64,000 bases of DNA from positions 1,888,001 to 1,952,000 of the forward strand of contig OY729428.2 in NCBI GenBank assembly GCA_963422375.2, written 5' to 3'. Position numbers and translations under genes: made by a program. Below the pieces are notes generated by a model. That model did no database searches and was not told the DNA's origin. It worked only from the letters and a program-made list of their open reading frames with translations. This document shows, piece after piece, positions 2,548-50,995 of the stretch. Origin of the DNA: Bryobacterales bacterium. GTDB lineage: Bacteria > Acidobacteriota > Terriglobia > Bryobacterales > UBA6623. The number at the start of each line of letters is the position of its first letter. Positions within the stretch are counted from its first letter, which is position 1.

Positions 2548-2573
2548 CTGGTAGCGGTCCAAGGAGACGATCG

Positions 2574-3959
<1,386 letters not shown>

Positions 3960-18251: not shown

Positions 18252-19141
18252 GCTGGGAATGACGGAATTCCTCCCGTGGCGCGCATGTGCAGCGCCCGGG
18301 CCGACAGCCACAGCTTCTTCCACGCAGGCAGGGTCACTGTACGGTCGAGGACCGCGTAGCGGACGCTGCGGATGCGGCCCAGGATGCCCCGGTAAGTCGC
18401 AACCATCGCCCAGAGGGCCGGCCGGCCGGCCGGGCTCAGCAGCTCGAGCAGGCCGGCGGACTCCTCGTAGTAGCGGTCGGCGCGCCGCCATTGGAACGCC
18501 ATGAAGCGCTGGAACCTGCGGTCGTCGGAGGAGATCCTGCGCTCGAGCAGATCCTCGCGGCTCAGGCCGAATTGCTCCAGTTCCACGGTCGGGAAGTAGA
18601 CGCGGCCCATGGCGGCGTCGTCCGCGACGTCGCGCATGATGTTCGTGAGCTGGAAGGCGATGCCGCACTTCTCGGCAAGCGGGATTGCGGCGCGCTGCTC
18701 GAAACCAAGCACGTGGATGGTCGTCATGCCCACGACCGCGGCGGCTTGATAGCAGTAGCCGTACAGGTCGTCGAACGTGCGGTGGACCTTGCCCGCCAGG
18801 TCGCTCTCCATTCCGTCCAGCAGGTCGAAGAAGTAGGCGTGCGGAATCGAGTACCGTTCGGTCGTGTCGCGGAATGCCGGGAGGGCGGCCTCGTCCGAGG
18901 AGCCTCCGGACAGGGTGCCGTGCACCCGCGCGCGCCAGCGGGCGATCTCGCGGCGGCGCTCGGGAACGGGCGCATCGCCATCGTCGGCGATGTCGTCCGC
19001 CCGGCGCATGAAGGCGTAGATCGCGCACATGGCGTCGCGCCGCTCCGGCGGGAGGAGCGCGAACGAGCGGTAGAAGTTGCCCGCCCGCGTCTTGGCGACC
19101 TGCCGGCAGTGCGAATAGGACTGCTCAAGCGTCCATGCCAT
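18248..19141 (-). CDS. hpnD: Presqualene diphosphate synthase HpnD (squalene/phytoene synthase family)
   Basis: NFY.SF, IYAFMRRADDIAD, YCY..A..VG, GIAFQLTNIMRDV..D..GRVY.P. Lies between hpnC and hpnE. Confidence 0.9.
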   Translation of the reverse strand: MAWTLEQSYSHCRQVAKTRAGNFYRSFALLPPERRDAMCAIYAFMRRADDIADDGDAPVPERRREIARWRARVHGTLSGGSSDEAALPAFRDTTERYSIPHAYFFDLLDGMESDLAGKVHRTFDDLYGYCYQAAAVVGMTTIHVLGFEQRAAIPLAEKCGIAFQLTNIMRDVADDAAMGRVYFPTVELEQFGLSREDLLERRISSDDRRFQRFMAFQWRRADRYYEESAGLLELLSPAGRPALWAMVATYRGILGRIRSVRYAVLDRTVTLPAWKKLWLSARALHMRATGGIPSFPA

Positions 19142-20078
19142 GGGCTTCGGGTGCCTCGGTCGCAGGCCTGGCTAGGCGGCGGAAGGCGGTTGCGAGCGCC
19201 AGCCAGGCCAGATCGAGCTTGCCGATGTCGGGCCTGGAGGCGATTGTGTCGCAGTCCCGCTTCGCGATCTTGGCGAGGACGGTCATGCCGGCTCGGGCGA
19301 ACATCTCGACTTCGAAGCCAAGCCGACCGCCGCAGCGGCCGGCCAGCGGGATGCCGCGCCGGAAGAGCGATGCGGCTCGCCGGGTCAGGTCTCGCAGCGC
19401 CTCGCGGCACTGCGGCGACGCCTTCCCGGCGGCCACGTCCCGAGCGAGCCGGTCCAAGGAGCAGCCGTGCGCTTGCAGCACGTCCAGGGGCACATAGACG
19501 CGACCGATTCTCCAGTCTCTCGCGACGTCCTGGCAATGGTTGGCGATCTGAAGCGCCGTGCAGATCGAATCGGAGAGAGCAAAGAGAGTGTCGTCCTGGC
19601 AGCCGTGCAGCCGCAGCACGAGCCGGCCCACCGGGTTGGCCGAGAAGCGGCAGTACCCCAGCAAGGCCTCGAAAGTGCGGTAACGGCGCACGGTCTGGTC
19701 CCGTACGAACGCCCGAATGAGGTCCTCGAAATCGCTGATCGGCAGTTCGTGGCGGCTCACCGTGTCGCCCAGCGCTACATACACCGGATGGAATGCATGG
19801 CCCCGTGCCATCTCCCGCAGCTGCGTCCACCACCAGTCGAGCAGATCGAGGCTGGTGCGGGAATCGCCCGATTCGTCGCTAAGATCGTCGGCCCAGCGGC
19901 AGAAGGCATACACGTTGCAGTAGTCCTGGCGGAGGCTCTTGGGAACTAGCGGGCTCGCGACGAGGAAATTCTCGTAGTGCTTGCGCGTCAAGGCCCGCGT
20001 GTAGCGTCGCGACTCCTCGATGCCCCAAGCGGGAAAGATCCTGCCGTGGTGCGACAGGAATTCGGTCGGAAACAGCAC
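19125..20078 (-). CDS. hpnC: Squalene synthase HpnC
   Basis: HYENFLVAS, YAFCRWADDLSDE, YCRFSANPVGRLVL, SD.ICTALQIANHCQDV. Confidence 0.92.
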   Translation of the reverse strand: MLFPTEFLSHHGRIFPAWGIEESRRYTRALTRKHYENFLVASPLVPKSLRQDYCNVYAFCRWADDLSDESGDSRTSLDLLDWWWTQLREMARGHAFHPVYVALGDTVSRHELPISDFEDLIRAFVRDQTVRRYRTFEALLGYCRFSANPVGRLVLRLHGCQDDTLFALSDSICTALQIANHCQDVARDWRIGRVYVPLDVLQAHGCSLDRLARDVAAGKASPQCREALRDLTRRAASLFRRGIPLAGRCGGRLGFEVEMFARAGMTVLAKIAKRDCDTIASRPDIGKLDLAWLALATAFRRLARPATEAPEAHGMDA

Positions 20079-20088
20079 GCGAAGTGTC

Positions 20089-21852
20089 TCAGAGGCCGGC
20101 TGCCACCCCTTCGCTCCGCGAATCGGCCGCTCCCATGATCACAGCCTCGCCGACCTCGATCGCTTCGACGTGCCCGAGGGAGCGGCCGAAACTCAGCCGG
20201 TGCCCGAACGATTCCAAGGCGTCGCGGGTTTCGGCCGAGACTCCGGACGGTTCCAAGTACAGCAGGTCGGGCATCCATTGATGGTGGAAGCGAGGGAAGT
20301 CCACCGCCTGCTGGACATTCATGCCGAAATCGATCACATCGAGAATCACCTGGGTGACCGAAGTGATAATGGTCGGCCCGCCTTGGGCGCCGATAACGAG
20401 GCGAGTCGTTCCGTCCCGCAGCACTATCGTGGGTGACATGGCGGAAAGAGGCCGCTTGCCAGGCTCGATCGCGTTGCTCTCGCTCTGCAGCAGCCCGTAG
20501 GCGTTGGGCGTGCCCGGCTTGGCGGTGAAGTCGTCCATCTCGTTGTTCAGCAGCACTCCCGTTCCCTTGGCGGTCACCCCCGATCCGTACCCTCCGTTCA
20601 GGGTGTAGGTCACAGCCACCGCATTGCCGGACGCGTCGACAACCGCGTAGTGCGTGGTCTCGTCGCTCTCGTACGCCTGCGGACGGCTATCCCCGACCTC
20701 GGCGCTCGGAGTCGCCCGGCTCTCGCGGATAGTCTTGCCTCGCGCAAGTGCGTATTTCTTGGAAAGCATTCCCTCTAGCGGGATGCGAACGAAGTCCGTG
20801 TCGCCGAAGAAGCGGGCGCGATCCGCGAAGAACCGACGCATGGCCTCGGCGGCGACGTGAATCGTGGCCGCGGATGCGGGTCCGGTGGCCGCAAGGTCGA
20901 AGCGCTCGAGGATGTTCAGGATCTGGATCACGCCCGCGCCGCCCGAACTCGGAGGTGGAGCGCCGAGTATGTCGTGGCCTCGGTAGGAGCCTGTGACCGG
21001 GCGTCTCTCGACGGGCTTGTAGGCGGCGAGATCGTCGGCGGTGATGGTCCCGCCGTTGGCGGCCATGTCCCGGGCGATCATGCGTGCCGTTCGCCCGGTG
21101 TAGAACTCGTCCGGTCCGAGGCGAACCAGGCGGCCCAAGGTCGCCGCGAGATCCGCTTGCACGAGAGTGTCTCCGAGCGAGAGATGCCGGCCGCCGTCGA
21201 GAAAAACGCGCCGGGACTCCTCGAATCTCCGCAGGCGCGGGCTCGCACGCAGGGATCGCGCCAGATCCCAGGTCACGGGGAATCCCTTGCTTGCGAGGCG
21301 CGCGGCTGGCGTCGCCATCGCGCTCCACTGCTTTGTTCCGTAGCGGGCCAGCGCGAGCGCCAGGCCGCGGACGGTCCCGGGCACGCCGGCCGCGCGGTAT
21401 CCAACCACGCTCGCCTCGGTGGCGTTGCCGTCCGGTCCTAGGTACATGTCGCGATGGGCGGAAGCGGGAGCCCGCTCACGGAAGTCGACGAACGAAGCGC
21501 GCCCGTCGGCAAGGCGGAGCAGCATGAAGCCGCCGCCGCCCAAGTTGCCGGCGTTCGGCTCGGTCACGGCGAGGGCCAGGCCGACGGCCACCGCAGCGTC
21601 GACGGCGTTCCCGCCGCTTCGCAGCACGTCGACTCCGACTTCGGTAGCGTGCCGTTCCGCGGTGACGACCATCGCGTCCCGTGCGTAGACGGGTTGCGGC
21701 CGGAACGCGCTCGCATCGGGAGCGATGAGGGCGAGAAGGACCGCGGCCAAGCCCAAAGCGAGGCGTGCCCGAGGCTCGGATGCTCGCGGAAGCGGACTGC
21801 TTCGCAGGCGTGTTCCAAGAGGCGGCCTGTCCCTGATCTGTGCGTCTGGCAT
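20089..21852 (-). CDS. ggt: Gamma-glutamyltransferase
   Basis: GGNAVDAAVA, DFRERAP, PPPSSGG, ETTH autoprocessing site, LLNNEMDDF, PGKRPLSAMSPT. Exact start uncertain. Confidence 0.95.
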   Translation of the reverse strand: MPDAQIRDRPPLGTRLRSSPLPRASEPRARLALGLAAVLLALIAPDASAFRPQPVYARDAMVVTAERHATEVGVDVLRSGGNAVDAAVAVGLALAVTEPNAGNLGGGGFMLLRLADGRASFVDFRERAPASAHRDMYLGPDGNATEASVVGYRAAGVPGTVRGLALALARYGTKQWSAMATPAARLASKGFPVTWDLARSLRASPRLRRFEESRRVFLDGGRHLSLGDTLVQADLAATLGRLVRLGPDEFYTGRTARMIARDMAANGGTITADDLAAYKPVERRPVTGSYRGHDILGAPPPSSGGAGVIQILNILERFDLAATGPASAATIHVAAEAMRRFFADRARFFGDTDFVRIPLEGMLSKKYALARGKTIRESRATPSAEVGDSRPQAYESDETTHYAVVDASGNAVAVTYTLNGGYGSGVTAKGTGVLLNNEMDDFTAKPGTPNAYGLLQSESNAIEPGKRPLSAMSPTIVLRDGTTRLVIGAQGGPTIITSVTQVILDVIDFGMNVQQAVDFPRFHHQWMPDLLYLEPSGVSAETRDALESFGHRLSFGRSLGHVEAIEVGEAVIMGAADSRSEGVAAGL

Positions 21853-22540
21853 CCCTGTCTGGCTCGGGGCCGACGCGAACAGCCAGGACGCGGGGCCTTC
21901 GTGTCTCGTATCGGGTGTCCGCCGCCGACACTCTCAGAATCGCACGGTCCGCAGATCATGCACCCGTGCCTGTCGCACAGCGCATCGTTCCCGAGCGATT
22001 CCCGGCGCTTCGACGGAATCAGCCGGCGCAACGTCGCGGCGAGGACGGCTGCTGCGAGCCCCGAGGCGCATCGGCTTCCGCCTGCGCAAGCTGCCGGCCG
22101 CCGGCCGGCTTGCTCGCCGCTGCACTTGGCGGCTCACGTGGACGGCTCGGATGCCGGCTACGGGTCCGAGCCGAGTCCAATGCACCGCCGGCCTCCCACT
22201 GGAGTGCTTGAAACCAAGCGGGGATGGGGGCCAGCGCTCAGCCTCGGTCGACAGAGGCCTTCGGCTGGAGTCTGTCAATTCGGATCCGTTCGAGGGTGTC
22301 GTTCAGCCAATCGGACGTCCGATCGGTCCGCGCTGGCCCGACTGGACGGGAGGGCCCAGCAGCCTCGGCTAGGCAACTCGATGCGCTCTCCGCGAGCGGA
22401 GCGGTCCCCGGAATCGATTCGATTTCAGCCACCGGAGCCGACATCCAAGACTTGACCGCACGTGACAACCCGAATGGCGGGTCGATGTCCCGAGCGAGCT
22501 TCTGCGATCGGCCGCCGGGATGTCGGCAGGGCCCCTGGTG

Positions 22541-23011: not shown

Positions 23012-24341
23012 GGAGTAGCCCGGGAAGTTGTCCCTGGCTGTCGGCGAATCGATCCACGGGAGCGCCGAAGGCGTCGAGCAGCGCTAGGTACAGGTCCGCC
23101 AAGGGATGGTCTTCCGGGTAGACCAAGTGCCGGCCCGAGTCGATCCGCCCGGCCCCGCGCCCGCCGAGAAGGATCGGAAGCTTGCGGGGATCGTGCCGGT
23201 GGCCGTCGGACAGAGCCGAGGCGAAGACGATCATCGAGTTGAACAGCACGTTGGAGTCGCCCTCCGGCATGGCGGCCAGCCTGCCTAGGAGGTACGCGAA
23301 CTGCTCCACGTGCCAGCGATTGACGAGCTTGTACTCCGCGAGCTTCTCTGCCTTGTTCCCGTGGTGCGAGACGTCGTGGTGCCCGGCAGTGACCCCGTCG
23401 AGGAACCGGAAGCTGACGTTGCTCACGGCGTTGCCGAACATGAACGTGGCGATGCGCGTCGTGTCCGACTGGAAGGCGATGGCGACCATGTCGAGCATCA
23501 GCCTCACGTGCTCTAGATGGCCGGAAGGCTGATCGGTCGGAGCTTCGCGCGGGTCGAAGGTCGCGCGCGCCCTCCACGTCCTGTTCCGAGGATCGGAAGA
23601 CCGCTCGATGCGCTTCTCCAGGGATCGCACCGACGAGAGGTACTCGTCGAGCCGCGACCTGTCGGCGGAGCCTAGCCCGCTACGGAGCCGCTTCGCGTCC
23701 TTCAGTACCCTGTCCAGGAGGAGAGAGTCCAGCCGCGCTTCGGAGCTAGCGGAGCCGCTCGCCGCTCGGAACAGCCTCTCGTAGACCGATCTCGGGTTGA
23801 GCTCGCGAGCCAGCGGCGTAGTGGGCGAGGCCCAGGAGACATGCGATCCGTAGACCCGCGTGTAGCCCACCACCGCGTCGTTTCCCACCGCGACCGGCGT
23901 CACTCCCAGCTCCAGCGAGGGAAGCGGCGTAAGGTCTCCCCGGGCCTTCGCCGCGACTTGGTCGAACGAGATGCCGTTACGCAGATCCGCCCCTTGGGTC
24001 TTCTTGATACGGGAGCACGTGAGAATCGAAGACTCCTTGACGTAGTGTCCGTCGCCGTCCTTGGCCTGCTCGTTCCAGAGGTTGCTCAGGACGGCCACGT
24101 CTCGCCGGACAGGGGCGAGCGGCTCGAGGCTGGGCGTGAGGGCAAAGTCCCGGCCCGCTTCCGCGGGCGTCCAGGATTCCGGGTAGGCCCCGTTCGGCAT
24201 GTAGAGTGCCGCGAGACGGACGGGCGCGCGCTCGGACCGTCCGGGCTTGGCCGCCATGGCCTCGAGCCACGGCAGGCCCAAGGCCAGCCCGCCGCCTCGG
24301 AGCAGCGCCCGTCGCGACATCTGGACGGTGCGAGCGTTCAT
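23004..24341 (-). CDS. DUF1552 domain protein (Tat-like)
   Basis: SRRALLRG.G..LGLPWLEAM, YMPNG, LPSLELG, LDEYL.SVR.LE.RI, AFQSD.TR, HH.VSHH. ATG overlaps the upstream TGA. Confidence 0.92.
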   Translation of the reverse strand: MNARTVQMSRRALLRGGGLALGLPWLEAMAAKPGRSERAPVRLAALYMPNGAYPESWTPAEAGRDFALTPSLEPLAPVRRDVAVLSNLWNEQAKDGDGHYVKESSILTCSRIKKTQGADLRNGISFDQVAAKARGDLTPLPSLELGVTPVAVGNDAVVGYTRVYGSHVSWASPTTPLARELNPRSVYERLFRAASGSASSEARLDSLLLDRVLKDAKRLRSGLGSADRSRLDEYLSSVRSLEKRIERSSDPRNRTWRARATFDPREAPTDQPSGHLEHVRLMLDMVAIAFQSDTTRIATFMFGNAVSNVSFRFLDGVTAGHHDVSHHGNKAEKLAEYKLVNRWHVEQFAYLLGRLAAMPEGDSNVLFNSMIVFASALSDGHRHDPRKLPILLGGRGAGRIDSGRHLVYPEDHPLADLYLALLDAFGAPVDRFADSQGQLPGLLHA

Positions 24342-26266
24342 CGACCGGACCTCCGTGCGGTGGCGGGAGTCGGCGCATCGGCTCCTAGGAATGGCTCGCT
24401 CAGCACGATCGCCCGCGCCAGCGACCAAGCCTCGAAATCCTGCCCCTGGACGCTGTCGACAATCGTTTCCACGGTGCAGGAGTTGGCCGGAGTCAGCCCT
24501 CTTCCAAGAGCATACCCCAGCATCCGCTTCGCCAAGTTGCGCAAGAACAGCGTTTTCCGGTCTAGGAGTGCCCTCTTGAGCTCGCTCGGGCCATCGAAAC
24601 CCGTGCCGTCGGGAAGCCGCCCGGATGCGTCCACCGGGACGCCCGCCTGTTCGTCGCGCCACCGCCCGACCACGTCGTAGTTCTCGAGCGCGAATCCGAG
24701 CGGGTCGATGTGCGCGTGACACCCGGAGCAGGCTGCGCTGCGGCTGTGGTTCGCCAGCAGATCCCGGTTGGTCGCGGCATCTTCCCCGCTTGTCGGCTCC
24801 TGCAGCTCGGGTACTTCGGGGGGCGGCGGAGGGGGCGGAGTACCGAGGATCGAATCCAGGATCCACACCCCCCGCAGCACGGGACTCGTCCGATGCGGGT
24901 GGGAGGCGACCGCCGCCACGGCCGGCATGGCCAGCAGGCCTCCGCGCTCGACGCCCTCGGGTAGTTCCATCCAGTTGGGGTTCTTTGCGTCCTGCTGCTT
25001 CTTCATCGGAAGATCCAGGTGCCTGATGAGATTGCTCGTCAGCACCGTGCCTTCGGAGTCGAGAAAGTCCAGCAGGGAGCGGTTCTCGCGGAAGATCTCC
25101 AGGAAAAAGAACACCGGCTGGAGCCGGATGTCGCCACGCATCTCTGCGCTGGCGGCGTATCCGGGAAACAGGTCCGGGTCGGGCCCGCGAGCGCCTGCCA
25201 ATTCCCGCGTGCGCAGCCATTGCTCGGTGAAGCGCGTCGCGAACTCCAGCGCCCGCGGACTTCGCAGCATGCGCGGCACGATCCGCCGCAGCACCTCCGG
25301 ATCGTCCATCCGCCCATCGGCCGCGATGTCGAGCAGGAACTCGTCCGGCATGCTGCCCCACAGGAAATAGGAGATCCGGGATGCGAGCGCGTACTGCCTC
25401 CGCGCGGGAGCGCCGGTGCCGCCGTTGACGTGGAACAGGAAGGCCGGCGAGACGAGCGCCCCGCGCAGCGCGAAGAAGACGGCCGGCTCGAAGGCCTGGC
25501 CCAAGCGCCTCGCCTTGCGGAAGAGCCGCAGGTAGGCCTCGACCTCCTCTCTCGCTACCGGCCGGCGAAACGCCCGCGGAAGGAACCGTGCCAGGATCCT
25601 TCGCGCGGCCTCGCGCTCGGGCACGCCGGGTCCCGGGCGCGCGACTAGGATCCGCCGCTTGGACTTGAATTCCTTGGAGGCGACATCGACGGCGAATCGC
25701 GCGGCGTCGAAGTACTTCTCAGTGAGCAGGGGCGATATGAACAGAGTCTCGGCCGCGTTGTCGAAACCCTCGCCCCCGGGGCCGTCGGCAGGCAGCATTC
25801 CGCTCACGTCGATCTGGATGTCGAGAAGGTCCCGCACGGTCGCGGCGTACTCTTCCCGGTTCAGGCGGCGGTTCAGGGCGGGTGGCGGTTCGAGCCCGGC
25901 TGCGCACGCCTGCGCCCTCCAGGCGGTCCGGGTCCACTCGACGAACCGGAGGCGCTCCTCGAGCGGGGGCCGGGGAGCGCCTGTCGGCGGCATTTCGTGG
26001 TCGGCGACGCGCGTTGACAGCGCGACCCAGTCGTCGGGACGCTCCCGGAACGACGCGACGCTCGCGAGCGTGTCGGTGCGGAACCCCGCCTCGGCGCCCT
26101 CGCCTCGATGGCACGTGTCGCAATGCGCTTCTAGGAAGCGTCGCGCCTCGCCGAATCCGCCGTCGCCTGCGGCGGGACGGGCCGTCGCAGGAACCAGGAC
26201 GAGCAGGCAGGCCGCACCCGCGCCGTTCCGGAACGGGACCCGCGCCAGCACTGCCGACTTCCTCAC
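24338..26266 (-). CDS. DUF1592/1588/1587/1585/1595 protein with two CxxCH motifs
   Basis: CDTCH, RRLNREEY..TVRDL, GFDN, AFRRP, LASRISYFLWGSMPD, TSPVLRGVW, CSGCH..IDPLGFALENYD..GRWR, YALGR. Start approximate. Confidence 0.92.
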   Translation of the reverse strand: MRKSAVLARVPFRNGAGAACLLVLVPATARPAAGDGGFGEARRFLEAHCDTCHRGEGAEAGFRTDTLASVASFRERPDDWVALSTRVADHEMPPTGAPRPPLEERLRFVEWTRTAWRAQACAAGLEPPPALNRRLNREEYAATVRDLLDIQIDVSGMLPADGPGGEGFDNAAETLFISPLLTEKYFDAARFAVDVASKEFKSKRRILVARPGPGVPEREAARRILARFLPRAFRRPVAREEVEAYLRLFRKARRLGQAFEPAVFFALRGALVSPAFLFHVNGGTGAPARRQYALASRISYFLWGSMPDEFLLDIAADGRMDDPEVLRRIVPRMLRSPRALEFATRFTEQWLRTRELAGARGPDPDLFPGYAASAEMRGDIRLQPVFFFLEIFRENRSLLDFLDSEGTVLTSNLIRHLDLPMKKQQDAKNPNWMELPEGVERGGLLAMPAVAAVASHPHRTSPVLRGVWILDSILGTPPPPPPPEVPELQEPTSGEDAATNRDLLANHSRSAACSGCHAHIDPLGFALENYDVVGRWRDEQAGVPVDASGRLPDGTGFDGPSELKRALLDRKTLFLRNLAKRMLGYALGRGLTPANSCTVETIVDSVQGQDFEAWSLARAIVLSEPFLGADAPTPATARRSGR

Positions 26267-26358
26267 CTCATCCGGGACGTGGGGCTGGAATGGACGCGAG
26301 GGCGGAGGGCGTGTGATAGCGTAAGGGGAGATGGCGGCCGTGCCGCCACATTCCGCGA

Positions 26359-26434
26359 GCCACGATAGCTCAGCTGGTAGAGCAGCGGTTTCGTAAACCG
26401 CAGGTCGTCGGTTCGAGTCCGACTCGTGGCTCCA
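26359..26434 (+). tRNA. tRNA-Thr (CGT)
   Basis: GCCACGA/TCGTGGC acceptor stem, anticodon arm GCGGT-TTCGTAA-ACCGC, GGTTCGAGTCC T-arm, encoded CCA. Confidence 0.97.
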
Positions 26435-26641
26435 TCCCGCATTCCCTCCGATTGTATCCCTTTGCCCCGAGACGGAACGGCTTGGGGAAGTGCTCCAACT
26501 CGGAGCGTGGCGTCTTCCGATCAAGACCGCGGAGGTCCGGGACCGCGCGCGTCGCGGGGCCGTTGGGCGGGTATGCTCGTAGGGCCTTCCCTGTAGGGAT
26601 GCCGGAGCGGTTCCCCTGCATCGAGCTGCACTCCAGCTGGC

Positions 26642-27760
26642 ATGAGAATCACCGACGTCGAAGCCATCTACCTGCGTTCGGAGCGGGTCAGGGAAGTCTG
26701 CGACTCCGGCCAGGACGCACTGATCGTGCGCGTCCACACCGACGCGGGCATCACCGGGCTGGGGGAGGTGGACTCGAGCCCGCTCGCGGCCAAGGGCGCG
26801 ATCGAGGGCCCGTACTCGCACACGGTGACGAGCGGCCTGCGCGAGCTGGTGATCGGCGAGGATCCCTTCGAGACAGAAAAGATCTGGCACCGTATGTACA
26901 CCGGCAACCTCTACGGGGGGCGGCGCGGCGCGGGCTTCCACGCCATGAGCGGCATCGACATCGCCTTGTGGGACATCAAGGGCAAGGCGCTCGGCATGCC
27001 GATATGGAAGCTGCTGGGCGGCGGCTTCCGGGACCGGATTCGCTGCTACGCCAGCTCGCTGTGGGGACCGACGCCCGCGGCGACGCGAGATCTGGCCAGG
27101 CGTTATGCCGACCGCGGTTTCGACGCGGTGAAGTTCGGGTGGGAACCGATGGGGCGCGACGAGGCCACCGACGTCGCGCTGGTCCGCCAGGCCCGTCGAG
27201 GGCTCGGTGACGGTCCCGACCTACTCGTCGACGCCGGCCTCGTTTGGGACGCGAAGACCGCCATACGGCGGGTTCGAGCCTTCGAGGAGCACCGCATTTT
27301 CTGGCTCGAGGAGCCCCTGATGCCGGACGACTACGACGGCTACCGGCGGCTCAGTGAAGCGGTGGACACGCGCATCGCCGCCGGAGAGGAGGAGAGCAAC
27401 CGGGCCTCCTTTCTCGAACTGATGGACCGCGGCAGGATCGACGTGGTGCAGGTCGACCTGACGCGCGCGGGAGGGTTCACGGAGGCGGTCAAGATCGCCT
27501 CGTTAGCGCAAGACCGCGGCCTTCCGGTCGCAAATCACGGCTTCACCACCTATGTCAACGTCGCCGCGGCGCTGCACTTCCTGAACGCGGTTCCAAACGC
27601 CCTCATCGCCGAGTACGTTGCCGAGGAGGAGACGACGCTGCGGGACCGGATCACCAGGCAGCGCATCGTTGCCAAGGACGGCATGCTGGCCATGCCGACT
27701 GAGCCCGGCTTGGGCGTTGACCTTGACGAGGATGCGGTCGAACGCTTGCGGATCGCATAG
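26642..27760 (+). CDS. Mandelate racemase/muconate lactonizing enzyme family protein
   Basis: TDAGITGLGE, SGIDIALWDIKGK, LLVDAG, WLEEP, AAGEE, PGLGVD. Confidence 0.93.
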   Translation: MRITDVEAIYLRSERVREVCDSGQDALIVRVHTDAGITGLGEVDSSPLAAKGAIEGPYSHTVTSGLRELVIGEDPFETEKIWHRMYTGNLYGGRRGAGFHAMSGIDIALWDIKGKALGMPIWKLLGGGFRDRIRCYASSLWGPTPAATRDLARRYADRGFDAVKFGWEPMGRDEATDVALVRQARRGLGDGPDLLVDAGLVWDAKTAIRRVRAFEEHRIFWLEEPLMPDDYDGYRRLSEAVDTRIAAGEEESNRASFLELMDRGRIDVVQVDLTRAGGFTEAVKIASLAQDRGLPVANHGFTTYVNVAAALHFLNAVPNALIAEYVAEEETTLRDRITRQRIVAKDGMLAMPTEPGLGVDLDEDAVERLRIA

Positions 27761-27765
27761 GGAAT

Positions 27766-28798
27766 CCTGATTACCCACAAGACTCAGCCAAGGTTAAGAG
27801 GCGGTAAGGCATGGGCGGGGTGCGCACGGAGGCGTGGAGCAGGCGGGGGACCAGCACCTGCAGATCGTAGCGGCGGTTGAAGCGGTAGCAGAACTCGGCG
27901 AGGTACCGCGGCAGGTGCTTGCCGTGGAGCGAATGGCAGGTTCCCGCCAGGGACTGCTTGACGTTCGCCAGCATCGTGTTGACCCGGAAGAAGCGGGAAT
28001 CCCCGCAGCTCCGCTTCCCGCCTCCGGTGACGGTCGGCACGTGCTCGCAGCCGGCGTCGGCCACGCCCCGGAAGCAGGCCAAGCCGTCGGAATGCACCTC
28101 CGTGCCGGGCTGCAAGTGCCGCCCGGCCCACGCTGCCAACGTCTTCTTGCGGAAGCCCGCCACGCTGCTCAGGCGCATCCTTGCCGGCTGGCCGGCGGCG
28201 GTGACCTGCACGGCGGCCACGAACGGCGTCTTGCCCGCCGCGCCGCGCCCGCGCTTGCCGCCGGTCCGCTCCCCGCCCCAGTAGGCGTCGTCCACTTGCA
28301 CGATGCCGCCCAGCGGCACGCGCTCGTCGCGCTCCTTCATCACTTGCAAGAGCTTGTGCTTCATCTTCCAAGCCGTGTTCTGGCTCACGCCCAGCTGCCG
28401 CGCCAGTTCCAGCGAGGAAACGCCGTGCTTGCCCTGCGTCAGCAGGTGGAGCGCCAGGAACCAGACGGTCAGCGGCAGCTTGGTGGCAGCGAAGATCGTG
28501 CCGGCGACCAGGGAGGTCTGGCGGTGGCAGGCATGGCACTGCCAGAGCTTGCGGGAGCGGATGCGGCAGTGCCGCCGGGAGCCGCACTCCGGGCAGCGGA
28601 AGCCGTCCGGCCAGCGGGCCTTGAAGACGGCCTGCTCGCATGGCCCCTCGCTGCCGTAGCGCTGCAGGAACTTGCCCAGGCTGAGTCCCTTCTGGAATTG
28701 CACGCGATTGCGTTTCATCTGCTATCCCCTTTCCTGTCAGAGATTTCCGACCTCCTTCAGTATAGCATATCCTCGGCTGACGTTCGTTGGTAATCAGG
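27766..28798 (-). mobile_element. IS1595-family element (1033 bp) inserted at the left end of the neighbouring MITE
   Basis: About 28-bp imperfect IRs starting CCTGATTACC. 8-bp TSD TAGGGAAT at 27758-27765 and 28799-28806. Confidence 0.92.
27771..28718 (-). CDS. IS1595-family transposase (open frame, some conserved residues altered)
   Basis: RWPDGFRCPEC..C..C zinc ribbon, VQVDDAYWGG, GRGA.GK, SDG, YLAEFCYRFNRR. Confidence 0.9.
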   Translation of the reverse strand: MKRNRVQFQKGLSLGKFLQRYGSEGPCEQAVFKARWPDGFRCPECGSRRHCRIRSRKLWQCHACHRQTSLVAGTIFAATKLPLTVWFLALHLLTQGKHGVSSLELARQLGVSQNTAWKMKHKLLQVMKERDERVPLGGIVQVDDAYWGGERTGGKRGRGAAGKTPFVAAVQVTAAGQPARMRLSSVAGFRKKTLAAWAGRHLQPGTEVHSDGLACFRGVADAGCEHVPTVTGGGKRSCGDSRFFRVNTMLANVKQSLAGTCHSLHGKHLPRYLAEFCYRFNRRYDLQVLVPRLLHASVRTPPMPYRLLTLAESCG

Positions 28799-28800
28799 TA

Positions 28801-29224
28801 GGGAATTATATATCTGAGTGCCGACAACGCCATGTCCGACTAGAACTGCCCTGAGCGGGGAGGTCGGCGTCGAGCTCGGGTCATTCGAGTGCGGCCGCGG
28901 TGGGCACGGAAGGGTGGGCCGCGCCGGACTGCACGCTGGAGCCGCGGCAGTGGGGGCATGCCGGACCGTCGGGCCAGCGCATGGAGGCGACCACTTTTTC
29001 GCGGATTCGTCATCGCGGAACATGGCGATCACTTCAATCAGGGTGATGCCTTTACGAAACCACTTTCCGGGACTTTTCTACTTTATAGACGACCTCATAT
29101 ATTGGAACTATTCTATCAAAATACCCCACCAACTGTCAACAGATCTCCGGAAGAAATATGAAATTAATTTATGGACTGATAATTTGCAAAATTGGTTGAC
29201 TCGGCACTCAGATATATAATTCCC
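28801..29224. mobile_element. 424-bp internally deleted derivative (MITE) of the IS1595 element at 43813-45306
   Basis: Perfect 24-bp IR GGGAATTATATATCTGAGTGCCGA. 8-bp TSD ATCGCATA at 27752-27759 and 29225-29232. Retains only the transposase N-terminus. Confidence 0.92.
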
Positions 29225-43427: not shown

Positions 43428-45952
43428 TCACTGCGGGGCCCCGGCGATCTTGGCGAAGAAATCCGTCATCACTTCGTCCCGCAGTACGCGGGTCGCGACG
43501 CGCATCCTACGGCCGCGCTTGACCTCCTGCCAGGACAGGTCGTCGCCGAGGGCCGGGCTCGGCACGGTGATCGACTCGACCCAGCGCGGCTCGGCCAGCC
43601 AGGCAACTGCTGCCAGATCCCAGATCGCCAAGGTCCGCGACGGACGGTGCGGGGCGTGCTGCGCGGGGCTCCGCTCTTGGACCAGCTCGTACAGGTAGTC
43701 GCCCGCGGCCGAACTTCCGCTCAGTCGGCGCTCCAGCTCGTCCCGGCTCGCGCGCAGGTTCTCGGCCACTCCGGGAGCCGGTACTTGCATCAGACCGGCC
43801 CCTGAATCGAAAGGGAATTATATATCTGAGTGCCGACAACGCCATGGTCCGACTAGAACTGCTGTGAGCAGGGAGGTGGGTGTCGAGCTGGGGTCATTCG
43901 AGTGCGGCCGCGGCGGGCACAGAGGGGTGGGGTGTGGGATCGTATCTGAATCGAGCCTGCCAGCGGATTGGACGAGGAAGGGACTAGAGAGGCCGCCTCG
44001 CATGCGCCGGTTGCCCCGGTGGAACCCGGTTGGCGGTGGCAGGGCACGCCTTGCAAGCCGCTTGCAGGCCCTGCGAGGGCCGAAGACAGCGGATCCCCGG
44101 CGCTCGACGGCCTGCATGGACGGTCCGGACCGGACCGGGGTCGCGCCGGGGCATGCCGGATCCGGTGCGACCCTCGTACCGAGCGTGAAGCGCGCGCCCG
44201 CAGCGGGCTGCCGCGCTCGGCGCGGCGGGCGCCGCTCAGGCCGCGACCGCGGCCTGGCCGGTCAGCTGCCGGCAGGTCAGCGTCCGGCCGACCAAGCCCC
44301 GCGCCATGCGCCGCATCCGTTCCGCCGTCCCGCGAACTCCGTGAGGTAGCGGCCGAGATGACGGACGCTCATCCGGTGATAGGTGCCGTACAGGCCGCGC
44401 TTGAACAGGGACCCAAACGACTCGATGCCGTTCGTATGCGCCGCCCCGCGCACGTACTCGCCGCCGGAGTGCCTGACGGCTTCGTGCGCGAACTCCGCCA
44501 TGCCGGCGCAGGCCGCCGCCTCGTCGGAGCGGACCTGCGCCCCCGGCGCGACCCGGCCGCGCACGAAGCCCTGCAGGTCGCCCTCGGCGGTGCCCGGCAG
44601 CGGCCGCGCGGCCGCTGCGTTCGTGGCGCGGTCGCGCGCCCCCGCCACGGGCGTCTTGCCGACGGGCCCGCGCCCGGCGCGGGCCTTCTTCCTCTCGTGC
44701 TGGTTGCGTTCCTTGCCGCCGACGTAGGTCTCGTCCACCTCCACCGGGCCGGCGAACAGGCCCCGATCCCGCTCCCGGCACGCGCGGATGCGGTGCGCCA
44801 GGTGCCGGGCCGACTTCCGGCTGATGCCTAGGTCGCGGTGCAGCTTCATGCTCGAGACACCCTTGATGCCGGTAGTCAGCAGGAACAGGGCGACAGCCCG
44901 GGTGCGGTAGCCGAGCTTGGTGTCGGCCATCACGCTGCCGGTGCGCACCGAAAAGCGCCTGCCGCAGCCGCGGCAACGGTACGGCATCGAAGGGTGGGCC
45001 GCGTCGGACTGCACGCTGGAGCCGCGGCAGCGGGGGCACGCAGGACCGTCCGGCCAGCGCATGGATGCGAACCACTTTTCCGCGGATTCGTCATCGGGGA
45101 ACATGGCGATCACTTCGATCATTGTGATGCCTTTACGGAACCACTTTCCGGGACCTTGTTTCTTCATTTACGGTATCCCCTACTGGAACTATTCTACCAA
45201 GAAACACCACAGAATGTCAACGGAAATTCGGAAGAAATATGAAATCTTATTATGGCTTGATAATTTTGCCGACTTGATTCCCTCGGCACTCAGATATATA
45301 ATTCCCAATCGAAAAGCGCTCGGGTGGCGGCGAGGTCTTGGCGCAGGTTGAATTCCTCCGCCGACGCGAAGTGGTGCGGCGTGCCGCCGAGCCAGACGAC
45401 CGTGGTTCTGGATCCGACCTGCGGCTCCAATCGCAGCGCGGCGGCCACGTTCGTGGGCGCTCCGATCGCAACCAAGTAGTGAATCGCGGGCCCGCCGCCC
45501 ATGACGCGTTCGACGATGTGCTCCGCGGCTGGGCTGGCGACCGGCCTGCCTCCGACGCTCGTCCACGCCTTCGCTCCCTTGAAGACCGGGATCTCGCCTC
45601 CGATGCGCACGGCCTCGAGCACTGGTCCGATCTCGTCGTAGCTGCGCTCCATGCCGTCTCCCGGGTCGCGGACCCTTCGGTTCACGAAGGGCGCGGCGCA
45701 TGTCGCTTCGATCTGGATCGACTCTCTCGACAGGGCGGCGTACGCTAGGGCGAACTGGTCATCGAAGTCGTTCCCTGCGTCCGTGTCGATCAGAATGCGA
45801 GACTTTCCGACGGGCTGGGGTGCCGCGCTCCGTTGGCCGGACGCCGACCGGGCGGAAGCAGCGACGGAGCCGCCCAGCACCGCGAGGCCGCGGAGCGAGG
45901 AGAGCATCTGCCTCCTTGACGGGTGCCGGGGCCGCTCGGAGCGGGCGCGCAA
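43428..45952 (-). pseudogene. Nucleoside hydrolase family protein (Tat-like), interrupted by IS1595
   Basis: ILIDTDAGNDFDDQFAL, AIGAPTNVA, EFNL.QD..A...LFD joins SGAGL..IWDLAAVAWL in frame once the IS and one TSD copy are removed. Confidence 0.9.
43813..45306 (-). mobile_element. IS1595-family element (1494 bp), transposase 44277-45167 degenerate near its C-terminus
   Basis: Perfect 24-bp IRs. 8-bp TSD AATCGAAA at 43805-43812 and 45307-45314. Motifs RWPDGP.CPRC, GPVEVDETYVGG, HTNGIESF, YL.EFAGR. Confidence 0.95.
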
Positions 45953-47229: not shown

Positions 47230-48645
47230 ATGGAACCTGTGGAAGACGCTCAGCGCGCGGCGACGCTCCGCTCACTCCCGAGTGTCGAGGAAGTGCTGCG
47301 ATCAGCCGACGCGGCCAGCTGGATTGCGTTCCTGCCGCGCGAGCGCGTAACGGACTTGGTGCGCGCAACGCTTGCGGAGATCCGCGGTCAGGTCCTGGCC
47401 GGCGCCCCGACCCACGGCGAAGACCCGGCCGAGGAAGTGAAGCGGCGGGTCGGTCGCACTATCGACGGCCTGCTGCGCAGCACGCTGCGTCCGGCGATCA
47501 ATGCCTCGGGCGTGATCCTGCACACGAACCTAGGGCGGGCCCCGCTCAGCCGGGCGGCGATCGAAGCCATCGTCGAGACTTCCGGCTGCTACACCAATCT
47601 CGAGTACGACATCGCGCTGGGCCGTCGCGGACGGCGGGACGTCCATTGCGGCGAATTGCTTAGGAACCTGCTGGGGGCGCCCGCCATCGTCGTCAACAAC
47701 AACGCGGCCGCGGTCTTTCTCGTGCTGAGAGAGCTGGCCGCGGGCGGAGAGGTGATCGTGTCGCGCGGCGAGCTGATCGAGATCGGGGACGGGTTCCGCA
47801 TTCCCGAGATTCTCCAGGCGTCGGGAGCGGCCCTGCGCGAGGTGGGCACGACGAATCGCACCCGTCTAGACGACTACCGGCGCGCGATTGGCCCGGAGAC
47901 CAAGGCACTGATTCGGATTCATCCCAGCAATTTCCGGCAGGTGGGATTCACGGGTCGGCCATCGCTGAAAGAACTGGCCGGGCTGGCGCGTGCCGAATCG
48001 ATACCGCTGATCGAAGATCTCGGCAGCGGGTGCCTGGGCGGACTGGAAGGAACCGGCATGGAAGGGGAGCCGCGCGCGATCGACAGCTTGGGCCAGGGGG
48101 CCGACGTGGTGACGTTCTCGGGCGACAAGCTGCTCGGCGGTCCCCAAGCCGGCATCATCGCGGGCGAGGCAGAGACGGTGGAGCGGATCCGCCGCAATCC
48201 CCTGTTCCGCGCCCTGCGCGTGGACAAGCTCACCTTGGCGGCACTGGCGGCCACGCTCAGGAGCTTCGTGACGGGCCGGCCCGACGACGTGCCGGTGCTG
48301 CGGATGGCGCGCACGTCGGTCGAGGAACTCGCCAAGCGGGCACGGCGGTTCGTCCGGCGGCTCGAGATGCTCCACATGCCGCACGCCGAAGTGGTCCACG
48401 GCGAATCGCTGCTGGGTGGCGGCTCGACGCCGATGCAGACTCTGCCTGCGGCACTGGTGGCCGTCAGCGGTCCCCCCGGGCTTGCGGTTCGCAGGATCGA
48501 GGCGGCCCTGCGCGTGAGCGACCCTCCTGTGATCGCCCGGGTCGAGAGGGACCGTCTGCTGCTAGACTTGCGTACGGTGCGGGAGACCGAAGAGGACGAC
48601 CTCCTCGCAGCGGTCCTGCGGTCCACCGGCGCGACGGACGTCTAG
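47230..48645 (+). CDS. selA: L-seryl-tRNA(Sec) selenium transferase
   Basis: INASGVILHTNLGRA, NLEY, VNNNAAA, SRGELIEIG.GFRIP, EVGTTNRT, DLGSG, FSGDKLLGGPQAG, RALRVDK. Confidence 0.97.
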   Translation: MEPVEDAQRAATLRSLPSVEEVLRSADAASWIAFLPRERVTDLVRATLAEIRGQVLAGAPTHGEDPAEEVKRRVGRTIDGLLRSTLRPAINASGVILHTNLGRAPLSRAAIEAIVETSGCYTNLEYDIALGRRGRRDVHCGELLRNLLGAPAIVVNNNAAAVFLVLRELAAGGEVIVSRGELIEIGDGFRIPEILQASGAALREVGTTNRTRLDDYRRAIGPETKALIRIHPSNFRQVGFTGRPSLKELAGLARAESIPLIEDLGSGCLGGLEGTGMEGEPRAIDSLGQGADVVTFSGDKLLGGPQAGIIAGEAETVERIRRNPLFRALRVDKLTLAALAATLRSFVTGRPDDVPVLRMARTSVEELAKRARRFVRRLEMLHMPHAEVVHGESLLGGGSTPMQTLPAALVAVSGPPGLAVRRIEAALRVSDPPVIARVERDRLLLDLRTVRETEEDDLLAAVLRSTGATDV

Positions 48646-48649
48646 CGCG

Positions 48650-49057
48650 ATGAAGTTCAGCGTGTCGACGCGAGGATTCACCGACATCCTTGACATCACC
48701 GCGAAAGTCAAGGAACTGGCGGCTGGCTCCGGAGCGGGGGACGGCGTGGTCCACGTGTTCGTCGCAGGATCGACCGCGGCTCTCTCGACTATCGAGTTCG
48801 AACCGGGCGCGGTGCGTGACCTGAAGGAGGCGCTCGAACGCATCGCCCCGATGGACGCCGCGTACCACCACAACGAGGCGTGGCACGACGGCAACGGCTA
48901 CGCGCACTTGCGGGCGGCGCTGATGAAGCCGTCGCTGTCGGTGCCAATGGAAGGCGGCCGGCTCGTGCTCGGCACATGGCAGCAGCTCGTGCTGCTTGAC
49001 TTCGACAACCGTCCGCGTCGGCGGACAGTTCATGTCAGGGTGAGCGCGTGCGCCTGA
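48650..49057 (+). CDS. yjbQ: YjbQ / UPF0047 family protein
   Basis: DITAKV, GSTAA..TIE.E, NG.AHLRA, LGTWQ..L.DFD.RPR.R. Confidence 0.92.
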   Translation: MKFSVSTRGFTDILDITAKVKELAAGSGAGDGVVHVFVAGSTAALSTIEFEPGAVRDLKEALERIAPMDAAYHHNEAWHDGNGYAHLRAALMKPSLSVPMEGGRLVLGTWQQLVLLDFDNRPRRRTVHVRVSACA

Positions 49058-49133
49058 CGGGGCGTGCCCGCGCGTAGGCCCGCGCAGGCACTCGTCTGCA
49101 ACCATGTTGCATTTTGAGCTATACTCGATTCCT

Positions 49134-50453
49134 ATGCCTGGTCACCTCGCCGCCCCTGCGCCGGGGGCCCCCGCGCGGGATCGATCTCTCCGGTTGTCGG
49201 CATCGCGGACGGCGCGCCGCTGCTTGGCCTGCTGCGCGCTTGCCTTGGGGCTCTGCTCCGCGGCCGCGGCGCGTGCCTCTGAGGCCGTCACGTGGATCGA
49301 GTCCTACGACGAGGCGCTCGCGGAGGCCCGCCGGACGGGCAAGCCGATCTTCCTCGAATTCCGGTGCGCGCCCTGAAGGGCCGGGAGGGAATTCGACGCA
49401 CAGGTTGTGCTGACCGACGAAGACACCAAGCGGGGGCGCCTGCTGCGGCAGTACGTAACCGCGCGTATCACGCGGATGGACCGAATCAACATCGGGCTAT
49501 TCGACTTCGACCGGTACAACACGCTCTACTTTTTCGCGCTCAACGCGGACGAGCAGATTTACCTCCGATACGGAGGTCGGGACGAAAGGTCTGCCACGAC
49601 CTACCTGGACCTCGAGAGCCTAGAGCTTGCGCTCGAGAGGGGGCTCGATCTGCATCGTCGCTATCTCGTCGGCAAGCTGCCCCGGAAACCGGTGCCGCCA
49701 GCCCGGTACCCCCGCGAAATCCCAGCCCTGCACGAGCGCACGGTCCAGCGCGGCCGCTGCGTGGAATGCCACCTGATCGGCGATCTCGAGAACGTGCAAC
49801 GCGAGCGGGACGGAACGCTTGACAAGCTGACCCACCTATACCGCGCGCCGGAGATCAGGCGAATCGGCATTGAACTGGATATCCCGAAGGGCCTTCGCGT
49901 GGAGCAGGCCAGCGGCGGCGCAGCCGCCGCCGGAATGCGTCCGGGGGACGAGATTCGCGCCGTCAACGGAGTCGATGTCTGGACGTTCGGGGACCTGCAG
50001 TGGGAGCTCGGCAAACTGCCCCACACCGCGAAGGATCTCGGGATTGGCGTCCTGCGGGACGGAAGGCGCGAGCCGCTCCGAGTGGGCCTACAGCCATTCT
50101 GGTGGCTAACGGATCTGACGTACCGCAACCTCTCGGTGGATCCCCGCGTCTATTTCACTTCGTCCGCCTTGGACGAGCGGGAAAAGGTCGAGCTTGGCTT
50201 CGACCCCCGCGGATTTGCCAGTCGGGTAGTATCGATCGATCCGCTGGCCGAGCTCCTCGGCAGCCACCAGCTCCGGGAGGGTGACGTAATTTACGGTGTG
50301 GACGGCAAGTTCGTGGATGACGTCGCCGATACGGCCCACTTGTACATCAAGCTGCGCAAGCAGGCTGGATCCGAGGTAACTTTGCAGGTCCTGCGCGGGC
50401 GCCAGCGCATGGCACTTGCGCTCAAGACGGAGAGGATGAGTTTTCGGAAATGA
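49134..50453 (+). CDS. Putative exported selenoprotein: thioredoxin-like CxxU domain + CxxCH + PDZ-like domains (about 439 aa, Sec at 49374-49376)
   Basis: ORFs 49104-49376 and 49407-50453 are in the same frame, separated only by TGA in EFRCAP*. Trx_7-like W...YDEALAEAR..GKPIFL. CVECH at 49758-49772. AA.AG.RPGDEI.AVNG and L.EGD.I..VDG PDZ-like motifs. SECIS-like hairpin and adjacent selA. Confidence 0.85.
49393..49417 (+). promoter_or_regulatory. Candidate bacterial SECIS element
   Basis: TCG-AC-GCAC[AGGTT]GTGC-TGAC-CGA hairpin. Apical loop begins 26 nt after the TGA and resembles the E. coli fdhF GCAGGUCUGC apex. Confidence 0.7.
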
Positions 50454-50995
50454 ATGCGCTCTGCCGAGCCGTCGCTGCGCTGGCTGTCACGGCCAGCCTC
50501 TGGGCCGGCGACTGGTCCGAGCCAGTGGAGGCCACTGCCCGTGACGGCACGGCGCTCGTCACGTGTCGCGCGAGGGTCGCCGGAGAATTTCTCGTGGTTG
50601 AAGTCACCGCCGCCGCCGGCTGGCACGTCTACGCCATGGACAACGAGCAGAGGGCGAGGGAAGCGCTGGCCGGGAAGATGTCGCTGGGCGTCGAGCGGAA
50701 TACGGAGGTCTTGGTATCGGGCGGCTTGGAGCAGGTCGGCGTCTGGTACCAGAGCACTCCCGACGACCATTCGCAGCCCGAGTTGCGGTGGTACTCGTAC
50801 GGTTTCGAGGGGACGACCCTGCTGGCTAGCCGGGTCCGGCGCACGGGAGGCGAAATGGCGAGCGTCGAGGTCCGCGCCCAGGCGTGCGACAGCGCCAGCT
50901 GCGTTAGCGTCGAGGCCGAGCTGCGGGTGAAGGTGCCCGGCGGCGACGGCGCGGCCTTCGCCTTGGATGGCCTAGTCCCCGTGCGGGGTTCGTGA
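50450..50995 (+). CDS. Secreted DsbD N-terminal-domain-like protein
   Basis: ATGA overlap with the selenoprotein stop. Signal peptide, GWHVYA, and QACDSASC (Cx4C) near the C-terminus. Confidence 0.65.
   Translation: MNALCRAVAALAVTASLWAGDWSEPVEATARDGTALVTCRARVAGEFLVVEVTAAAGWHVYAMDNEQRAREALAGKMSLGVERNTEVLVSGGLEQVGVWYQSTPDDHSQPELRWYSYGFEGTTLLASRVRRTGGEMASVEVRAQACDSASCVSVEAELRVKVPGGDGAAFALDGLVPVRGS

Follow-up and report, generated by a model that had tools for sequence, protein, structure and literature searches.

The abstract of PMC2631958 describes the reductase DsbD as having nDsbD and cDsbD on either side of a membrane domain, with a cysteine pair for electron transfer in both. Two neighbouring genes for proteins that resemble these flanking domains were analysed on contig OY729428.2 of the Bryobacterales bacterium assembly GCA_963422375.2 (Acidobacteriota). 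The analysed stretch, referred to as the window, is 64 kb long (contig positions 1,888,001 to 1,952,000, forward strand). Four codirectional genes on its plus strand were studied at window positions 47230-50995 (Table 1): selA, yjbQ, a gene for a selenocysteine (Sec) protein with thioredoxin (Trx) and PDZ domains, hereafter the selenoprotein, and a gene for a secreted 181-aa protein, hereafter the partner. Sequence comparison and predicted structures suggest, with a probability of roughly 0.62, that the last two genes encode a two-protein periplasmic thiol/selenol-disulfide relay made of the soluble domain types of DsbD, without a linked membrane domain.

The likeness to DsbD extends to both proteins. 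The partner has the fold of nDsbD and of the N-terminal domain of ScsB (ScsB-N), with the cysteine pair aligned. The first domain of the selenoprotein belongs to Thioredoxin_7 and also matches the C-terminal domain of the DsbD-like proteins P0315 and P0322. In cDsbD, the residue aligned with its Sec is the first Cys of CxxC, and the two-gene cassette holds three conserved redox-type pairs. Unlike DsbD, the cassette has no linked membrane (beta) domain, and its domains occur as separate secreted proteins or as fusions with the arrangement gamma-PDZ-PDZ-alpha. Sec takes the place of the nucleophilic Cys, the resolving Cys lies three residues upstream and Gly occupies the canonical second position. 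The cassette further includes a PDZ tandem and a CxxCH motif, and the Cys residues of the partner are spaced as Cx4C. No DsbD_TM domain was found in the genes or flanks scanned, and therefore the cassette is not a DsbD.

In ScsB- and DsbD-like systems, an alpha-type domain serves one dedicated Trx-fold partner, a logic that the selenoprotein and its partner would share. The alpha domain of ScsB is part of a membrane protein, and its client ScsC is not known to contain Sec or PDZ domains. The N-terminal periplasmic domain of ScsB from the ScsB/ScsC system (Proteus, Salmonella; 6c29) was the best fold match of the partner. TsoB (NF045694), a rhodanese/DsbD fusion-like selenoprotein, is also DsbD-related and of periplasmic type, and is listed in the same table of the review passages cited below as the Trx7/PDZ family. 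The window selenoprotein matched it weakly (E 6.7e-4, 17.9 bits against a cutoff of 805) and is not a member. TsoB is distinguished by a UxxxxU motif, a rhodanese domain and a three-selenoprotein operon, whereas the Cx4C protein of the window keeps Cys. The C-terminal half of the selenoprotein matches the PDZ tandems of DegP, DegQ and RseP in fold and sequence but is not joined to a protease domain.

The Trx7/PDZ family is already catalogued. Passages of two reviews list it in tables with the motif CxxU (PMC13188914, PMC9312934); there it is a table row only, without a partner, a CxxCH motif or a function. An earlier annotation made from the DNA letters alone, the sequence-only reading, had overlooked that the family has an entry (NF041199). 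In the literature searched, with the NF041199 notes and cited supplements outside the search, the search for a described partner led only to the review table row, and no description was found of the obligate pairing or fusion with a DsbD-alpha-like protein, the shifted C-x-x-U-x-x-G site or the invariant CxxCH. The main text of the 2008 Global Ocean Sampling paper (PMC2398784) contained no mention of PDZ, DsbD, thioredoxin-like or Solibacter. The selenoprotein family is known, and its DsbD-alpha-like partner appears to be new.

Table 1. Features of the four-gene locus, in window coordinates
Feature	Coordinates	Strand	Basis and remarks
selA, L-seryl-tRNA(Sec) selenium transferase, 471 aa	47230-48645	+	TIGR00474 516.1 bits (cutoff 267.9); PF03841 417 bits
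yjbQ / UPF0047, 135 aa	48650-49057	+	TIGR00149 91.2 bits (cutoff 67.75); PF01894 115.1 bits (cutoff 27)
Trx7/PDZ selenoprotein gene, including stop codon	49134-50453	+	NF041199; Pfam Thioredoxin_7 and two PDZ regions
Signal peptide region (predicted, by eye)	49134-49277	+	Hydrophobic N-terminus ending AAAARA; mature start about SEAV
Thioredoxin_7-type fold (DsbD-gamma-like domain)	49278-49667	+	PF13899 E 1.2e-7; model secondary structure; weak alignments to DsbD C-terminal domains
C-A-P-U active site (FRCAPU, CxxU)	49365-49376	+	Cys codon 49365-49367; Sec codon TGA 49374-49376
SECIS-like hairpin, codons GAC GCA CAG GTT GTG CTG	49395-49412	+	Stem 49398-49401/49407-49410, loop AGGUU
C-V-E-C-H (CxxCH)	49758-49772	+	Helical linker between Trx fold and PDZ1; C161, C164, H165
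Tandem PDZ domains	~49866-50132, ~50145-50432	+	PDZ_2, PDZ_6 and PDZ matches; boundaries from model secondary structure
ATGA overlap, selenoprotein stop/partner start	50450-50453	+	Direct reading
Secreted DsbD-N (alpha-domain)-like protein, 181 aa	50450-50995	+	Signal peptide of ~19 residues (read by eye)
G-W-H motif, residues 57-59	50618-50626	+	GWH invariant in 27/27
Cys146-x4-Cys151 redox pair (CDSASC)	50885-50902	+	Invariant in 27/27, 46/46 and 8/8 fused forms

The selenoprotein was assigned to NF041199 (trx7_PDZ_seleno) at full length and above the curated cutoff, with 395.4 bits against 300. Residues 63-441 covered model positions 2-389 of 390, so that the match ran across the in-frame TGA and on both sides of it, with CxxU in the Trx7 domain followed by the PDZ domains. 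Relatives were collected in a scan of one genome per species, which yielded 197, and the best 80 loci were analysed. Conservation was counted in alignments of 53 selenoproteins and 27 partners, in a locus-derived set of 46 partners and in eight fused forms. TGA occupied the Sec position in 79 of the 80 loci and in the window; the exception, L048, lacks the N-terminal part. The in-frame UGA was thus shared by the orthologues, and the coding sequence to either side of it was conserved. C30 and U33 were invariant (53/53), and Cys replaced Sec in P0209 and in the eight fused forms. A search with the Cys form P0209 returned its own family only, including full-length clusters rich in Planctomycetota. 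A split gene or pseudogene, considered as another explanation of the TGA, was rejected on the conservation of the TGA and of synonymous sites. Possible starts of the gene are ATG 49134, ATG 49104 and TTG 49194.

Downstream of the TGA, synonymous codon choice was frozen. In an alignment of 80 sequences beginning at the TGA, the block 22-39 nt downstream held GAC in 80/80, GCA in 79/79, CAG in 80/80, GTT in 70/80, GTG in 80/80 and CTG in 78/80 sequences, whereas invariant Gly residues in the same alignment rows used all four codons. RNAalifold placed a stem of four pairs with the loop AGGUN in this block, 24 nt past the UGA, with only two stem changes, both wobble-compatible. The columns show no variation, and hence no covariation was seen. 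Folded as a single sequence, the 67 nt that follow the UGA were no better than shuffles (z +1.08), and no selenocysteine insertion sequence (SECIS) family of Rfam was matched. The frozen block bears the signature of a constraint at the RNA level, such as a putative SECIS element. Sec decoding at the TGA is supported, at the level of sequence, by the 79 of 80 loci, the frozen hairpin and the NF041199 match that spans the codon. Most public protein entries of the family are 348-aa fragments starting past the UGA, and the Trx/Sec domain is missing from annotations because public gene calls begin after this codon. In practice, public gene calls truncate the selenoprotein at the UGA. Database entries P0102-P0221 were nearly all fragments of 325-359 aa, some of them named 'serine protease Do'. 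Further selenoproteins of the FCYxU TonB-receptor type were not seen in the window.

The mature selenoprotein was modelled with AlphaFold2 (AF2), with U read as C. The model was compact, with a predicted local distance difference test (pLDDT) score of 94.3 and a predicted template modelling (pTM) score of 0.90, and comprised a Trx fold, a helical linker and two PDZ domains. Homologues carry short Sec-type export leaders ahead of a conserved mature start. Export by the twin-arginine translocation (Tat) pathway was considered, since the window leader holds RR, but was rejected because the homologues have plain Sec-type leaders. Cys30 sits three residues upstream of the Sec. In three gapless alignments with agreeing registers, the first Cys of the DsbD-gamma CxxC was matched by the Sec and the second Cys by Gly36, and the model helix begins at residue 37, consistent with Sec at the first position. 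According to these alignments, and unnoticed in the sequence-only reading, the Sec is the nucleophilic first residue of the canonical Trx dyad and not the second. In cDsbD, it is the first Cys that forms the mixed disulfide with nDsbD. Because the Sec aligns with this Cys, the cassette resembles the two soluble DsbD domains minus the membrane domain. In Foldseek searches of the Protein Data Bank (PDB), the best matches of the PDZ tandem were those of DegP, DegQ and RseP, with E values down to 2.5e-10. The tandem probably holds polypeptide substrates.

The partner had been described by the sequence-only reading as DsbD-N-like, and this description held. Its AF2 model reached a pLDDT of 88.9, and its top Foldseek matches were ScsB-N (6c29) and nDsbD from Neisseria and E. 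coli (6dnv, 6dps, 1jpe, 1l6p, 1vrs), including DsbC-DsbD-alpha and nDsbD-cDsbD complexes. At E<=0.001, 13 PDB entries were matched, and at least 12 of them were of ScsB-N, nDsbD or nDsbD complexes. Target-normalised template modelling (TM) scores were 0.6-0.65 for nDsbD entries and 0.42 for ScsB-N. In hhalign, the partner family matched the N-domain of the three-domain DsbD-like protein P0322 with 97.9% probability and E 4.2e-13, with the Cys pairs in register. The family profile reached three-domain DsbD-like proteins at E 1e-16 to 4e-15, and DsbD_N matches at E<=0.01 were obtained with 21 of the 27 family members (best 5.9e-7). In the set of 46, H59 was invariant and G57 and W58 were at least 90% conserved. 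Judged from the model and these alignments, the predicted fold of the partner is the Ig fold of the DsbD-alpha/ScsB type, with a redox Cys pair homologous to that of nDsbD. The family is narrow, with about 100 clusters of close homologues and 155 matches at E<=0.001 in a library of 1.84 billion representatives. The extreme C-termini differ in length and residue, and the C-terminus of the partner was rejected as a candidate PDZ ligand. The distant relatives P0277, P0299, P0262, P0267, P0269, P0271, P0276 and P0283 keep a GWHxY(A/G)MDN block. P0277 and P0299, whose sequences were read, both keep QVCx4C and are both fused to ChuX/HutX haem-utilisation domains. Fusions to EF-hand domains occur in some distant relatives.

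The arrangement of the locus was as the sequence-only reading had given it. Gene order, spacing and motifs were all confirmed by reading the window sequence: the 4-nt gap between selA and yjbQ (48646-48649), the 76-nt gap between yjbQ and the selenoprotein gene (given the ATG start at 49134), the ATGA overlap of the selenoprotein stop (50451-50453) with the partner ATG at 50450, and both GWHVYA and CDSASC in the translation of the 181-aa protein. Gene-neighbourhood conservation, which that reading had named as a check, was then found for the last two genes. A partner homologue lay downstream of the selenoprotein gene in 78 of the 80 loci, and the two exceptions (L028, L065) are cut off by the end of a contig. 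The pair was thus kept in all 78 testable loci despite changing flanks; in two of them (L033, L056) the partner is displaced by 0.6-1.9 kb. An (A/G)TGA overlap with the partner frame open from that start was present in 69 of the 78. No other family-wide neighbour of the selenoprotein gene was found among the related loci. Heterogeneous housekeeping Pfam matches were obtained for 68 flanking ORFs (open reading frames) from 50 loci without selA, the longest of 95 being left out. Positional synteny divided the loci into about 30 groups, a rough measure, as some contigs are short.

Fused forms were found as well. Among the longer matches of the partner profile, P0266 (606 aa) is arranged as Trx7-PDZ-DsbD_N-like; its linker is short and it lacks an internal signal peptide. 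P0242, also a fusion, differs in its linker. A search with the C-terminal portion of P0266 retrieved eight fused clusters of 587-610 aa, two of which are named 'Verrucomicrobiales bacterium' and 'Rubritalea sp.'. In all eight, CxPC (Cys for Sec), CTECH and Cx4C were invariant. Taken together, pairing and fusions argue strongly, on comparative grounds, for a joint function of the two proteins. The proposal of the sequence-only reading that the last gene encodes the dedicated redox partner of the selenoprotein fits the pairing (78/78 testable loci), the eight Verrucomicrobial fusions and the DsbD-N-like fold, and is probably correct. The two genes could instead be neighbours that are merely inherited together, the partner serving a general Dsb system and the selenoprotein acting alone. 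The pairing counts are inflated because the loci share ancestry, with 79 of the 80 unfused loci titled as Acidobacteriota and mostly as one order. However, adjacency persists through the turnover of flanks across the synteny groups, the 4-nt overlap is kept, and in a second phylum the proteins are fused with the three motifs invariant, the second fusion having another linker. We regard mere co-inheritance as highly improbable. Genes that appear damaged were observed in three loci. L048 (10001-11006) holds a selenoprotein without the N-terminal Trx/Sec part, the partner gene of L054 (11110-11740) is broken across two frames, and so is yjbQ of L003 (9414-9932). These could be pseudogenes or assembly errors.

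A further motif, CxxCH, had gone unmentioned in the sequence-only reading. C161, C164 and H165 were invariant in 53/53 selenoproteins, and the fused forms had CTECH (8/8). In the model, helix 164-178 carries the motif at its N-terminus. The motif may bind haem c or a metal, or form a third redox pair. CxxC motifs at helix N-termini are characteristic of redox or metal sites and not of class I cytochromes c. This setting in the model would favour a redox or metal site over haem c. The only Pfam match at the motif was magnetochrome (PF18509), and it fell short of significance (E 0.097, 12.7 bits; cutoff 30.4).

If CxxCH were a c-type haem or metal site, the cassette might be a haem- or metal-linked redox module, with haem c coupled to the selenylsulfide or with a role in haem handling. 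The invariance of the motif (53/53 and 8/8) would fit such a module, as would the export of the protein, given that haem c is attached outside the cytoplasm. The ChuX/HutX fusions of P0277 and P0299 and the weak magnetochrome match point the same way. However, these fusions belong to distant paralogues, the magnetochrome match stays below significance, and the position at the helix N-terminus differs from that in class I cytochromes c. No second axial ligand was identified, and no ccm or ccs genes were linked among the 35 window ORFs and 68 flanking ORFs scanned (ccm genes being absent from the 68 flanking ORFs). A haem- or metal-linked module appears improbable on this evidence.

For the thiol/selenol-disulfide relay, we infer the following scheme of physical contact, electron direction, electron source and substrates. 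Both proteins would be exported, their signal-type leaders having been read by eye, and would be produced together from the ATGA-coupled genes, the UGA being read as Sec with the help of the hairpin 24 nt downstream. The two would exchange a mixed selenylsulfide or disulfide directly, in the manner of the gamma and alpha domains of DsbD. In the preferred flow, an unlinked membrane reductase (of CcdA or DsbD-beta type, or a full DsbD) would reduce the partner. The partner would then reduce the CxxU of the selenoprotein, which in turn would reduce substrates bound at its PDZ domains.

Several observations weigh against the relay. The alignments that place the Sec are individually weak, with E 0.23 for E. 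coli cDsbD and, for two DsbD-like proteins, E 0.0021 and E 0.0043 at probabilities of 13% and 8%, respectively. On the window partner, PF11412 (DsbD_N) scored 21.7 bits (E 2.2e-4), below the cutoff of 25 bits, and the profile of the partner family found no match among PDB sequences. DsbD_TM or CcdA was found neither in the four genes nor in the 35 window ORFs and 68 flanking ORFs scanned. The invariant CxxCH has no place in a simple relay. All 80 loci are from metagenome-assembled genomes (MAGs), and all are titled as Acidobacteriota, mostly Bryobacterales, except L045 (titled Acidimicrobiia). The direction from partner to selenoprotein is a preference, and strict domain homology, in which gamma reduces alpha, gives the opposite direction.

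The same partnership could accordingly run in reverse, as in DsbD. The selenoprotein would be reduced first, perhaps by a CcdA-type protein or through the CxxC(H) site that it carries, and would reduce the partner, which would be the output hub for periplasmic Trx-fold clients. By domain homology, the Trx7 domain corresponds to cDsbD and the partner to nDsbD, the U aligns with the cDsbD Cys that attacks nDsbD, and the cassette has three conserved Cys/Sec pairs, as DsbD does. However, a PDZ tandem and Sec on the same protein suit a terminal enzyme that handles substrates better than a relay station, and no client or donor was linked to the cassette in the loci scanned. Reverse flow is rated as doubtful but as a strong competitor, and the flow from partner to selenoprotein is preferred. 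A different source of electrons might apply if the cassette were a self-contained 'soluble DsbD'. CxxCH, as haem c or a third dithiol, would take electrons from a periplasmic cytochrome/quinol pool and pass them through Cys-x-x-Sec to the DsbD-alpha-like protein. We hold this to be quite unlikely. If it were true, periplasmic proteins would be reduced without electron import from cytoplasmic thioredoxin; to our knowledge, every characterised bacterial route that reduces proteins outside the cytoplasm needs a membrane protein of DsbD or CcdA type.

In the relay as preferred here, the two soluble domain types of DsbD would form an obligate pair or a fusion without the membrane part, with Sec at the attacking position and PDZ domains attached. 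If this is true, a partner and a mechanism would be assigned to a selenoprotein family that is otherwise met, in the review passages cited above, as a table entry. With Sec forms in Acidobacteriota and Cys forms in Verrucomicrobiota, the family would also serve as a natural experiment on the contribution of Sec to thiol-disulfide relays. The question of the origin of the electrons would then arise.

The two upstream genes were less consistently associated. A selA gene lay upstream of the selenoprotein gene in 27 of the 80 related loci. On a quick maximum-likelihood tree of the selenoproteins (IQ-TREE), the selA-linked rows made up 28 of one 30-row clade, with a Shimodaira-Hasegawa-like approximate likelihood ratio test (SH-aLRT) support of 97, corresponding to one gain and two losses. 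As the selA-linked rows map to one clade, selA linkage is a single lineage-specific event. The proposed linkage of selA with the selenoprotein is thus real at the locus but is confined to this clade and not family-wide. Within the clade of the window, the position of selA plausibly serves co-expression of Sec synthesis and the selenoprotein. Between selA and the selenoprotein gene, yjbQ was present in 17 of the 27 selA-linked loci (17/80 overall), a pattern that needs about five gains or losses within the selA-linked clade. A selenium role for YjbQ, as suggested by the sequence-only reading, is unsupported because yjbQ is patchy within this clade. The gene appears to be a lineage-specific insert. 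In the literature, papers that co-mention YjbQ and seleno terms have neither term in title or abstract, and no co-mention of UPF0047 with seleno terms was found. In the same tree, the selenoprotein of L045, a MAG titled Acidimicrobiia (Actinomycetota), pairs with that of L038 (Acidobacteria) with SH-aLRT 99 inside an Acidobacteriota clade. This suggests a binning or labelling error and not gene transfer.

Domains were scanned in 35 of the 52 candidate ORFs of the window. No selB or selD domain was present among these 35, in line with the absence of selB from the locus noted by the sequence-only reading. A tRNA-Sec gene was found neither in the 64-kb window nor in the 60 related loci scanned, and selA was the only part of the Sec machinery found in the window. 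The genes around the four-gene locus were acidobacterial in appearance.

Other features of the window were recorded alongside. Transposase genes of the IS1595 family at 27774-28721 (-) and 44280-45167 (-) bracket a segment of ~15-16 kb, accompanied by partial direct repeats (28834-29185 versus 43847-45266, 81-89% identity). The segment carries a leucine-rich repeat (LRR) protein, an FtsX fragment, another DDE transposase, a sulfatase and a TonB-type receptor, and ends ~2 kb upstream of selA. Genes of planctomycete-type PSCyt2/PSD1 and DUF1501 proteins adjoin at 1-3956. A PSD2-5/PSCyt3 protein is encoded at 24341-27220 (-), where gene boundaries are uncertain because the stop-to-stop frame overlaps a tRNA-Thr gene (26359-26434) and a mandelate-racemase-like ORF. 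At 18251-21933 (-), tandem genes of the squalene/phytoene-synthase family adjoin a gamma-glutamyltranspeptidase gene, and the tandem resembles an arrangement of the HpnC/HpnD type.

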